Positions 6,129 to 40,421 of a stretch of DNA of 64,000 nucleotides are shown in pieces. Both the position numbers and the translations under genes were made by a program. This DNA is from a virus. The DNA lies in IMG/VR virus record IMGVR_UViG_3300046787_000129, positions 1-64,000 of that record; one strand, written 5' to 3'. Under the pieces are notes generated by a model, which saw only the letters and a program-made list of their open reading frames with translations, did no database searches and had not been told where the DNA came from. The number at the start of each line of letters is the position of its first letter. Position 1 is the first letter of the stretch.

Positions 6129-6171
6129 AGTGTTCCTTATTTAGTTGTATGCTTATTGTATCAAGTTTAGA

Positions 6172-6270
6172 GGGGGAAGTCAAGACCCAATTTCTCAACT
6201 TCCCCCAGTGGTACCACCAGAAACCCAAAACCAGTGGTACCGTTGGCAAGGAGTAATCTCAACCCACCAA
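6172..6270 (-). ncRNA. candidate three-hairpin antisense RNA with UUGGGU loops
   Basis: Three consecutive stems; G-U pairs extend the stems only on the - strand; loops AAUUGGG(U) and UUUUGGGUUU. Confidence 0.5.
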
Positions 6271-6280
6271 GTATATTAAA

Positions 6281-6670
6281 TTAAATAATTATCTCTTCAG
6301 CCATGGATACCCACCAGTTTGGTTCTGGTAGGACGTCGTCAACATTAATAGTTTTAATAAGGCTAGCGATACGTGGTGGAGCAAAAGCTAGGAAGTTCTC
6401 TGCAAAGTCCCACCAGTCTGAACCATACTCATCCTGTGGATAGTGCTCTGCAATGAGCGCTGTCTCTTCAGGGGTGCATTCGATAAGCAATGGCGTCTCA
6501 TACTTCCTTGTGCCCCTTGCGTCCTCTACGTATACATAAGGGTCAATGGTAAGGGTAGTGGCCCAAGTGGTCCCATTCTCTGCATACCAGTCTGACTCTT
6601 CAGTCCAGTCCGCTTCTTCAGTATAGATTTCACGGTAGAAGATGTTAAGATCGATAGTCTTACTAGACAT
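6281..6670 (-). CDS. acidic hypothetical protein
   Basis: ORF 6281..6712; probable start MSSKTID. Confidence 0.7.
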   Translation of the reverse strand: MSSKTIDLNIFYREIYTEEADWTEESDWYAENGTTWATTLTIDPYVYVEDARGTRKYETPLLIECTPEETALIAEHYPQDEYGSDWWDFAENFLAFAPPRIASLIKTINVDDVLPEPNWWVSMAEEIII

Positions 6671-6932
6671 ACCATAGCCCTTCCTTATCAGTGTCGTGGC
6701 CATCGCAACCACAGCAGTTCAAACAAAACTCTTGCTGGTCTGGACATTTGAATACGTCCATGATTACTTCACTGTCTGAAGTTAGATAAACCTGACAGTC
6801 ATCACATACTTCCACTTCAGTCTCGTCCAGTAGTTGGAAGACCTCATTAGATTCTACGTGACGATACATCTTCTCGATAATCTCAGACTGCCAGTCATCG
6901 TCAACTAGCAGGGTGTACTTGGTTACCTTCAT
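6663..6932 (-). CDS. Cys-rich hypothetical protein
   Basis: CDDC...C...CLNCCGC..H. Confidence 0.7.
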   Translation of the reverse strand: MKVTKYTLLVDDDWQSEIIEKMYRHVESNEVFQLLDETEVEVCDDCQVYLTSDSEVIMDVFKCPDQQEFCLNCCGCDGHDTDKEGLWYV

Positions 6933-17954: not shown

Positions 17955-18011
17955 GGACTCATTATACTGTAATTTGCAACGGTAAACCTATAAAAATGTT
18001 ATAATTGCGTT

Positions 18012-18426: not shown

Positions 18427-18663
18427 TCACCATTTCTGTATAGGACAATGAGCTCTCTCAAGAGTAGTCTTGAGTCTCATAAAACATCCACACTTGGTGC
18501 ATTGCTCTAATCGATGATTAAAGAATTCACAGCTACGACAGATGGCCAACCTATCTTCTTTAAGCTGAGAATCGCTTCTAGGCTCCTTTGGATTGAATAG
18601 TGATAAGAACTGTACATCTTTCTTATTATTCGCTCCTGGGGCATCCTGTGGCTTCTCCGACAT
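18427..18663 (-). CDS. DUF6171-like Cys protein, paralog 1
   Basis: R..ICRSC...QCTKCGCFM.LKT....CP..KW. Confidence 0.75.
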   Translation of the reverse strand: MSEKPQDAPGANNKKDVQFLSLFNPKEPRSDSQLKEDRLAICRSCEFFNHRLEQCTKCGCFMRLKTTLERAHCPIQKW

Positions 18664-18905: not shown

Positions 18906-19193
18906 ATGAGTTTTACTGATTGGGCTGGATTTATTCTAACAAGTTTGTCAATACTTGCTATCCTCGGTATAGGACTCAGATGGGTAATTAGACATTACCT
19001 AAAAGATATACTTCATGAAGTCAAACCTAACAGTGGTCAATCAATAAAAGATCAGGTTACTAGACTGGAAAAGAATTTCTCTAAAATAGAACATCAGCAA
19101 ATAGAAGCAGATCTTCTTAGAAAAGAAATGAATAAAAAAATAGATCACATGTACGATGTTCTATTAGATTACATTTCAAAATCAAGTAGATAA
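18906..19193 (+). CDS. single-TM coiled-coil membrane protein (holin-like/lysis accessory?)
   Basis: N-terminal TM, KPNSGQSIKDQVTRLE. Confidence 0.55.
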   Translation: MSFTDWAGFILTSLSILAILGIGLRWVIRHYLKDILHEVKPNSGQSIKDQVTRLEKNFSKIEHQQIEADLLRKEMNKKIDHMYDVLLDYISKSSR

Positions 19194-19425
19194 TCAGGCT
19201 GCCGAGAAGGCTGCGATCTGATTATATTTATTATATATAAAAGCTATATAGCTAGTAAAACATATCTTATATATTATTTCTTTTATTTATTAATTATATA
19301 TAAGATAGCACACAAATTTACTTTGTCAACACTTTTTTAATATATTTTCATATATCTTTTTTATAACAATTTAATAGTTGTGTATTATAAACAAACAAAC
19401 TCAAAGTTTATGGTATACTTTATAC

Positions 19426-19478
19426 AACTGGTGCCCAGGTTTGTCTCTCATACCCACCGACTTGGGCATCAGTTTTTA
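19426..19478 (+). ncRNA. candidate ~50-nt hairpin sRNA
   Basis: TGGTATACT promoter at 19411; 15-bp stem with G-U pairs on + strand; loop UGUCUCUCAUACCCACC; U-run. Confidence 0.55.
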
Positions 19479-19507
19479 TTTTATTTTAGTGATATAATTG
19501 AGGTAAT

Positions 19508-19885
19508 ATGAGTACTTCAATATCTGATTCGTTTGGACTTACACCAGCACACGTTAAATGGAACGTTGTTAGGGGAGATACCTCTGAGCTCTTTGTAGAG
19601 TTCCTTGAGAATGACGAGTCAACGGTTTATGATATCTCAGATTGGGAATTCTCGTCAAGTGCCTATGATTTTAAAGGTGACGTTGTTGATGAGCTAGATG
19701 TAGTTCCTAGTGCAGAAGGCGTAACAATCATTGCACAGTCCGACATCACTCAATATTGGGGTACTGGGTATAATTCAACCGTAGCAGAGCTAGCCTTTGA
19801 TCTACAGGTGATTGTCAATAATAAAGTTTGGACTCCAATCATCGGAACCATAAAGGTTCAAGCTGATGTAACTGGAGGACTATAA
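19508..19885 (+). CDS. small Ig-like virion protein (RGDT paralog 1)
   Basis: VVRGDT...FDLQV...GTIKVQADVT. Confidence 0.7.
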   Translation: MSTSISDSFGLTPAHVKWNVVRGDTSELFVEFLENDESTVYDISDWEFSSSAYDFKGDVVDELDVVPSAEGVTIIAQSDITQYWGTGYNSTVAELAFDLQVIVNNKVWTPIIGTIKVQADVTGGL

Positions 19886-25892: not shown

Positions 25893-26462
25893 CTAAAGTG
25901 TTTCTAATACTCTAACGTAACTAACACTAGAATAGTTTCCAGCAAAAGTCTTTACATCCTCAAATCTTGTAACATGTCCATGCTTTGGTGCATGAATCAT
26001 TTGTCCATTACCAGTATATATTCCAACATGGTATGCATCGTGTCTTCCGATATACTTAAAAACAACAATATCCCCAAGCTTCGGGGATCTAGTTACTTGT
26101 CCATAGTCTTCTTGTTTAGAAGCCCTATGCGTTATGTTGATATTCAGTTGTTCATAAAACCACATTGTTAGACCCGAACAGTCCCATCCAGCAGGAGAAG
26201 CTCCTGAGAATACGTACCACGTTTTGCCAACATGAGATTTTAATTGAGAGAATGCTTTTTGCATTTTTTCAGTATTTGAAGTGGCGACTAGATTGGCTAG
26301 CATTTGCTTTTGCCTTGCAGCCATTATTCTTGGGTTTAAATCGCCCTCTATATTTACTTGATTTACTACTGTAGTTACTTTCAAAGCTTCCGAACTTTCA
26401 GGGGTAACGCAGCCTGTTAGTGTTAGTACCAAGGTACCGATTGCAGCAATTTTAAACTTCAT
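25893..26462 (-). CDS. NlpC/P60 (C40) peptidoglycan endopeptidase, lipoprotein
   Basis: Lipobox LTGC; YVFSG...WDCSGL...GDIVVF...HVGIY.GNGQMIHA. Confidence 0.9.
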   Translation of the reverse strand: MKFKIAAIGTLVLTLTGCVTPESSEALKVTTVVNQVNIEGDLNPRIMAARQKQMLANLVATSNTEKMQKAFSQLKSHVGKTWYVFSGASPAGWDCSGLTMWFYEQLNINITHRASKQEDYGQVTRSPKLGDIVVFKYIGRHDAYHVGIYTGNGQMIHAPKHGHVTRFEDVKTFAGNYSSVSYVRVLETL

Positions 26463-26714
26463 TTTGCTACCTCCTTATTTTTTATGTTGTTACGACCTCT
26501 CTCACAGGTCCTGGCAGACAATATTCTTTCAGGTGGATAGAATATTTCCTTGAGTATGCCAGTGATTTCACGTTGTTGTCACTCTGTTTGTCACTATGTT
26601 CCTCTTAGAACAAAAACTTCCTTTAGAAGGAAGTTATCTATAAATTATACCATTATTTCGGGTACAGTCAATCAAAGATTGGCTAATTCTTTAATTATGG
26701 TATAATTAAGTATT

Positions 26715-40403: not shown

Positions 40404-40421
40404 TATGGTATAATGGTGGTT

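Follow-up and report, generated by a model that had tools for sequence, protein, structure and literature searches.

The hairpin that stands directly ahead of the tail-fibre module of this phage raises the question of whether it ends a transcript or is an RNA in its own right and, in the latter case, what its loop recognizes. It lies in a window of 64,000 nt, namely positions 1–64,000 of a 109,629-bp IMG/VR record rated complete by CheckV. The phage encodes WhiB, a PASTA-domain protein, DnaB, DnaG, Pol III alpha, RecA, RNR, and RtcB, together with 12 tRNA genes and a tape-measure protein of 2387 aa; no sigma factor was found in it. It is an actinophage with a long tail and, given that it carries WhiB and a PASTA domain, an actinobacterial host is indicated. 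The features of the locus, and of the sites discussed with it, are listed in Table 1.

Table 1. Coordinates of the hairpin locus, its neighbours, and candidate partner sites in the window.
Feature	Position	Strand	Evidence or remark
Proposed partner site GGUGGGU-UGAGA, candidate	6257..6268	-	12 bp, one bulge, -21.0 kcal/mol
Second candidate partner site GGUGGGUAU, perfect 9-mer	6309-6317	-	50 nt from the 6257-6268 site; both within 60 nt
Leaderless six-Cys protein gene, orthologue in the window	18427..18663	-	N-terminal extension; no loop complementarity, -5.9 kcal/mol
95-aa gene, upstream of the hairpin	18906..19193	+	tblastn in 74/80 loci, same strand, just upstream; phrog_9869 match
Divergent leftward promoter, TTGACA-16-TATCTT with TG	19302..19329	-	Sequence
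P1, extended -10 promoter TGGTATACT, no -35	19411..19419	+	Sequence; ends 6 nt ahead of the hairpin base
Spacer between P1 and stem, 6 nt	19420-19425	+	Sequence
Hairpin stem, 5' arm	19426..19441	+	MFE fold; compensatory changes
Hairpin loop, 17 nt, UGUCUCUCAUACCCACC, single G	19442..19458	+	MFE fold
UCUCAUACCCACC within the hairpin loop	19446-19458	+	Sequence
Invariant loop core AUACCCAC	19450-19457	+	Invariant alignment columns; U19446 invariant too
Hairpin stem, 3' arm	19459..19474	+	MFE fold; compensatory changes
U-tract TTTTTATTTTATTTT, likely RNA 3' end	19475..19489	+	Sequence
P2, second extended -10 promoter TGATATAAT	19490..19498	+	9 nt ahead of the ATG at 19508
125-aa gene, opens the tail-fibre module	19508..19885	+	458 homologues

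The MFE fold gives the hairpin a stem of 16 bp, 3 of them G-U, with a conserved core of 13 bp, so that the stem described in the initial annotation is real and only its length of 15 bp changes. The extended -10 promoter and the U-tail that had been ascribed to the hairpin were both borne out, the promoter (P1) having a consensus that is invariant in 59 distinct relatives. The fold has a predicted energy of -26.6 kcal/mol, compared with -12.9 ± 2.6 kcal/mol for 200 shuffled sequences (z = -5.3), none of which was as stable. Such a stable, GC-containing stem followed directly by a U-tract is what an intrinsic terminator would have, but a terminator loop is short (about 3–8 nt) and unconstrained, whereas this one has 17 nt and a core invariant in the 59 relatives; a terminator scan of the window did not list the site. 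Known families gave no counterpart. There was no tRNA or Rfam match at gathering score in the window, an Rfam 15 local search of the hairpin at E ≤ 10 returned no family (best score 30 bits versus a cut-off of 67; 6C absent), megablast and tblastn against phage records yielded no matches, and neither did a search of IMG/VR for the exact hairpin pattern.

Relatives were plentiful nonetheless at the level of profiles: an IMG/VR profile search returned 468 matching stretches, 80 loci were fetched, and a covariance model of the hairpin was built from 59 distinct sequences. In 76 of the 80 loci, the model detected exactly one copy, syntenic and on the plus strand, with scores of 47–77 bits, compared with 30 bits or less on the minus strand. 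The order P1, hairpin, T-run, P2, and ATG directly upstream of the 125-aa gene was visible in 75 of the 80. Two of the four loci without a match are truncated upstream (L043 and L063), and the other two lack the element (L068 and L069). The hairpin is likewise single-copy in the complete genomes G000–G005 and G008 and is found nowhere in G006, the complete genome behind L069. In this 109-kb relative, about 45 nt of unrelated sequence replace P1 and the hairpin in the region homologous to window positions 19400–19490, with P2 and the gene kept, making it a natural deletion variant; given that such a complete relative exists, the RNA is dispensable. One side match came from L095:17589–17641 on the minus strand (about 37.6 kb in G005), where a terminator-like hairpin has a stem like that of the window (GTAGTGCCCAGGG / CCTTGGGTGCTAT), a different loop, and a score of 27 bits; this could be a paralogue that has diverged, or the match could be due to chance.

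A copy of a host gene was considered and rejected as the origin of the hairpin. Scanning 185,579 prokaryote genomes for 16-mers produced 45 hits, four of which were copies of the hairpin in the same layout, on AT-rich, phage-like contigs in unrelated MAG bins; the other 41 had no convincing hairpin, and no host-encoded copy was found in these genomes. The bin labels of the phage contigs conflict (Beijerinckiaceae, Methylococcus, and Actinomycetota), and we make no host call from them because they disagree.

The stem has evolved as a paired structure. All 15 stem pairs examined showed compensatory changes in which both sides had changed, 94.5% of stem cells were standard pairs compared with 29–50% when partners were slid by 1–3 columns, and none of 500 shuffles reached any of the observed covariation measures. 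About 70 cells were G-U or U-G on the plus strand, compared with about 15 non-pairs; these would be A-C mismatches on the other strand. Given the frequency of these wobble pairs and the asymmetry of the model scores, the plus strand is the folding strand.

The P1 consensus T-N-TG-N-TAT-N-N-T is invariant in the 59 distinct relatives, a conservation equal to that of P2. P1 ends 4–13 nt before the predicted stem across relatives (6 nt by eye in the window; the automated estimates are noisy), so that the RNA would start at or just before the stem base. At the other end, at least 6 T were present in the first 8 nt after the stem in 41 of 64 copies; a minority was poor in T, and the U-tract was absent in L106, L136, L011, and L040, although some copies without it kept the loop. 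P2 was present in 61 of the 64 copies scanned, with 6–9 nt between its -10 and the ATG in 56 of the 61; given this distance, the P2 transcript would be a leaderless mRNA. Across the family, the stem has 13–16 bp and the loop 15–19 nt with almost no G. The loop core is invariant and its flanks are variable: the 5' half, (G)UCUCUC, is nearly invariant, some lineages having a shorter or changed form (GUCUUAU, UGUCCUAU, AUCUCGUAU), and the CAU of the loop is UAU in several lineages.

These observations match what is expected of a small-RNA gene. There is a conserved single-stranded seed, with AUACCCAC invariant and the 5' pyrimidine half nearly so, and at the sequence level there are an extended -10 at a fixed distance, a U-tract as 3' end, and no start codon after P1. 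There is no ORF after P1, and in the relatives that were read, an RNA reading through from P1 would present the AUG internally and without an SD; consequently, the hairpin is the only conserved product of P1. The possibility raised at the outset, that the element is only a terminator with an unconserved loop, does not agree with the invariant core, and the proposal of a stand-alone hairpin RNA with a meaningful loop is supported by the invariance of loop core and promoter in 59 relatives and by stem covariation. Judged by this conservation, the element can be regarded as a genuine phage small RNA, one that is strongly conserved and had not been catalogued before.

The promoter class gives an indication of when this RNA may be made. 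Thirteen genes of the phage, mostly in the rightward block, have a -35-less TGNTA(T/C)A(A/C)T with the ATG 6–9 nt further on (TGNTATAAT promoters), as seen at window positions 17997, 25601, 26698, 28276, 34794, and 40406 and at further sites up to 107437. Given that the ATG follows the -10 by only 6–9 nt, their mRNAs would be leaderless. The early leftward promoter at 6163 on the minus strand, which we inspected, has a TTGAC-type -35 and an SD-led leader. P1 is of the class found at the 13 leaderless genes, and the RNA is therefore probably co-expressed with virion or structural genes. We put the probability at roughly 0.5 that the locus is a dedicated stand-alone small-RNA gene, probably late, which acts through its loop. 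As read from sequence and conservation, host RNA polymerase would start at the -35-less P1, 0–4 nt before the stem, the transcript would be a hairpin of 13–16 bp with an apical loop of 15–19 nt and almost no G, and in most members transcription would stop at the U-tract to leave an RNA of about 50–55 nt. The invariant AUACCCAC, following a pyrimidine run, would then serve as the recognition surface for a partner in trans.

A different role in cis also deserves consideration. Here the hairpin would be a promoter-proximal terminator or insulator that prevents transcripts started at P1 or coming from the upstream 95-aa gene from entering the tail module, unless a factor recognizing the loop, N/boxB-like or put-like, permits read-through. 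Its position at the head of the tail-fibre operon and the strong U-tract agree with such a function, weak U-tracts in several copies imply read-through in some members, and an invariant loop would suit a protein-binding site. Locus L076 is instructive in this respect: after its hairpin come UUUU, an SD, and a gene for a 2OG-Fe(II) oxygenase with no P2 between, and because the inserted gene follows the hairpin without a P2, read-through must occur there. A second promoter-hairpin-U-tract module stands ahead of an SD-led gene at 26610–26660 on the minus strand. However, P2 lies directly after the hairpin in 61 of 64 copies and would give a leaderless mRNA, which makes read-through from P1 unneeded, and such read-through would yield a poorly translatable internal AUG. 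Moreover, a classical attenuator could not form, given that the RNA starts at the stem and there is no RNA upstream of it to pair with alternatively, and no second stem was found between P1 and P2. The comparison with hairpin-less G006, which differs only in lacking a subtilase and an M23 lysin, offered no RNA-binding candidate in the gene content. The antitermination leaders of lambda (PR'-6S RNA-tR', N/boxB) and HK022 (put) share with this locus a constitutive promoter and a short terminated transcript with a hairpin directly ahead of late or structural genes. Here, in contrast, there is a second promoter after the terminator, the loop greatly exceeds boxB in size, and neither boxA with a small boxB loop nor a two-stem put fold was found, the structure being a single long stem with a 17-nt loop. 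On balance, we regard this role in cis as possible, if unlikely.

Regarding the two loci just mentioned, the oxygenase gene of L076 (L076:2180–2893) has an AGGAGG SD and is inserted between hairpin and P2, the hairpin thereby being a 5' leader. The unit at 26610–26660 (-) consists of TTGACT, a spacer, TGGTATAAT, 8 nt, a hairpin (AACTTCCTT/AAGGAAGTT), and TTTTG. Next come some 120 nt of leader and a 189-aa gene with an SD (25893–26462, -); the unit may function as an attenuator or represent a further small RNA.

Upstream of P1, the divergent leftward promoter is found in relatives (L002–L081 region) as TTGACA, about 17 nt, and then TGTATAAT, which is of consensus strength. The interval from there to P1 contains one to four (T/G)ATAAC(A/G)AT boxes, replaced in one subclade by ATGTCC-N6-TGTCC, and the transcribed region after the divergent promoter is rich in TATATA; region 19302–19400 looks like an operator region. 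Another alternative is a reading at the DNA level, in which a single-stranded hairpin with an invariant loop would be a nick, origin, or recognition site (rolling-circle/HUH), or the transcript would be an origin transcript beside the AT-rich region. Such sites classically combine a variable stem with an invariant loop, the AT-rich TATATA region and repeated boxes are just upstream, and pairs of DnaA boxes occur 590 nt upstream in the window. We nevertheless consider this very improbable. The roughly 70 plus-strand G-U cells, compared with about 15 non-pairs, would be A-C mismatches on the other strand, and an invariant promoter at a fixed distance together with a U-tract suits an RNA. For replication, the phage encodes DnaB, DnaG, Pol III alpha, and RecA, with no Rep/HUH protein detected by Pfam among the 20 largest ORFs beyond 64 kb. 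DnaA boxes were present only in the window and L047 (2 of 50 loci), and an origin defined by them was rejected because they are not conserved.

The initial annotation had proposed the loop as part of a possible triad, in which it would sponge the minus-strand 6172 RNA, whose UGGGU motifs would target ACCCA boxes at early start sites. The proposed 12-nt, one-bulge pairing with GGUGGGU-UGAGA does exist as a predicted duplex, though it is no better than chance: it ranks about seventh among some 22,000 genome windows, and the best duplexes in five shuffled genomes reached -23 to -27 kcal/mol. A perfect 9-mer (GGUGGGUAU) lies on the same strand close by, and four ACCCA copies (UGGGU on minus-strand RNA) cluster within 125 nt at 6185–6313, which speaks for the circuit; set against this, the closeness of two such sites has, by a rough estimate, a chance probability of about 0.04, and ACCCA is not enriched genome-wide (91 copies versus 95 expected). 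Directly before AUG in early regions, ACCCA is enriched in G000, the genome of the window (8 copies), and in G001 (5 copies) but not in G004 and G005 (2 each). Co-conservation of the 6172 RNA with the loop across related phages was absent. The gene beside this RNA (6281–6712) was undetected in five complete relatives, all of which have the hairpin with its invariant loop, and the only DNA match to the 6257 region, a weak one in G002, retains the flanks while the site reads TCTCAACCTGCC (CCTGCC), with ACCCACC lost and the G002 loop unchanged. Given that the partner is not co-conserved and that the boxes are enriched in only two of four genomes, the circuit cannot explain the invariant loop. The sponge, or anti-antisense triad, is accordingly unsupported as well as highly unlikely, and it would be at most a lineage-specific extra. 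Finally, that the hairpin does nothing more than end transcription of the upstream gene as an ordinary intrinsic terminator is scarcely credible, since its GC-rich stem and U-tract, some 230 nt beyond the 95-aa gene, come with a loop of 15–19 nt containing nine invariant positions, a conserved dedicated promoter that adjoins the hairpin and starts the RNA at the stem base, and copies that keep the loop without a U-tract, a conservation pattern that already contradicts it.

If the locus is indeed a small-RNA gene acting through its loop, a partner should exist, and we searched the phages for it. When up to 3 mismatches were allowed, 14-mers complementary to the loop occurred in five complete genomes only at control frequency. 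With 8-nt seeds and wobble allowed, no orthologous gene was matched in sense orientation across seven complete genomes, and no loop complement was positionally conserved within 3 kb on either side of the hairpin. Several individual candidates were rejected. A mimic of the tRNA-fMet anticodon loop (CUCAUA..CCC) does not fit, the CAU being UAU in several lineages, nor does a mimic of the anti-SD or 16S 3' end, which the loop presumably resembles, since it cannot pair with GGAGG. The translation initiation region of the gene at 40413 (GGUGGUUAUG) is not conserved in orthologues, and a second CAUACCCACC at about 97.19 kb is coding sequence (TYPPYN) in a gene that we take, by its motif, to encode a small heat-shock protein. 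Nor could a protein partner be obtained from presence and absence, as gene content differs from that of hairpin-less G006 only in the subtilase and the M23/PG-binding lysin missing from the latter, both lysis-type enzymes. In G000, the subtilase-like peptidase is encoded at 87757–88635, the M23/PG-binding lysin at 90064–90939, a WhiB gene at 92787–92963, and the apparent small heat-shock gene at about 97.09–97.5 kb; this last gene has an SD-led mRNA and a TTGACA/TGCTATAAT promoter.

A more specific signal came from the 5' ends of leaderless mRNAs. We scored 364 predicted leaderless 5' ends against the loop of their own locus, and 10 of the 13 sites at or below -13 kcal/mol fell in one gene, a leftward gene for a small six-Cys protein 0.6–2.2 kb from the hairpin. 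Six-Cys candidates differed from other leaderless candidates with a Mann-Whitney p of 1e-5, a naive value that is inflated by the relatedness of the lineages. Several lineages show complementarity between the loop (CGUCUCUCAU / UACCCAC) and the first 10–17 nt of the six-Cys mRNA, among them lineages in which the gene starts with AUGGGAGACG or GUGGGUAAUGAAGA. Three pairing registers were seen, namely AUGGGAGACG (L005, L017, L021, L025, L033, L035, L036, and L039), AUGAGUGACG (L020), and GUGGGUAAUGAAGA (L031). Codons 2–3 are GGA GAC in all eight MGDV/MGDD members, while codons 4–5 vary at third positions. Assuming three independent events in about 12 independent lineages (both estimated) and a background of about 0.9%, the probability of coincidence is roughly 1e-4. 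The pairing is limited to about 10 of the 59 distinct loci and to none of the complete genomes: loop complementarity is absent in the orthologue and the two six-Cys paralogues of the window and in the orthologues of all complete genomes. In the window's own genome, neither the leaderless 5' ends nor the genome duplex scan, which was at chance level, gave a loop target. The alternative that the loop pairs with a complementary start site thus holds for leaderless six-Cys 5' ends in several relative lineages and not for the genome in which it was put forward. From these complementarities, the six-Cys mRNA is plausibly one target among several and not a universal one.

Given that no conserved complement was found in the searched phage genomes, the partner of the small RNA would most likely be a host RNA or an RNA-binding protein, and candidate counterpart sites in host RNA would read GUGGGUAU. 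The most concrete mechanism would be antisense occlusion of the 5'-terminal start codons of leaderless mRNAs. As a tentative and rather doubtful generalization, the RNA may act family-wide, either silencing leaderless mRNAs at their 5'-terminal start codon or titrating a conserved host RNA-binding factor or nuclease via AUACCCAC. If true, this would be an RNA-level means of control or counter-defence peculiar to actinophages, whose hosts depend on leaderless translation. Through the partial match to leaderless 5' ends, RNA control of leaderless translation becomes accessible to testing. An invariant 8-nt core for which no conserved phage complement was found points to a conserved host partner, the finding of which would reveal a host process that all these phages need to touch.

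Loop-presenting antisense RNAs such as P22 sar, lambda oop, P1 c4, P4 CI, and those of the CopA/RNA I type are similarly short, have their own promoter and terminator, act by loop recognition, and can occupy control regions between divergent blocks. They differ in being cis-antisense or in having known co-evolving targets in the same element, whereas no conserved phage target was found for the core of the hairpin. To our knowledge, phage-encoded regulatory RNAs are few, and almost none have been described for actinophages. The present RNA is short and single-copy, shows unusually clean covariation, and belongs to a lineage with hundreds of environmental relatives (the 468 IMG/VR matches), for which MAG sample names suggest lake and groundwater sources. 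Chaperone-independent small RNAs with C-rich loops are known from Actinobacteria (PMC6486639). Among them, 6C is comparable in that it comes from the actinobacterial clade and uses C-rich, G-poor loops to pair with G-rich mRNA sites without Hfq or ProQ (PMC6486639), but it is encoded on the chromosome and displays at least two C-rich loops, whereas the RNA described here is a single, phage-encoded hairpin; the 6C covariance model did not match it at E ≤ 10.

Lastly, the genes flanking the hairpin were characterized. Near its N-terminus, the 95-aa protein encoded upstream is hydrophobic over a stretch that, judged by sequence, resembles a membrane helix. Many of the homologues of the 125-aa protein encoded downstream are on contigs of 105–121 kb. 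Its AlphaFold model (pLDDT 85.7) gave the tail-tip structures of DT57C and T5 as best Foldseek matches (E = 1e-6), and by this model it is a tail-tip collar protein of Ig-like fold, similar to T5 p132; the idea that it binds RNA was rejected on these grounds. Taken with the tRNA clusters, the long tape-measure protein, and a terminal repeat of about 1 kb, its structural closeness to T5/DT57C tail-tip/baseplate proteins indicates that this actinophage has a T5-like architecture.
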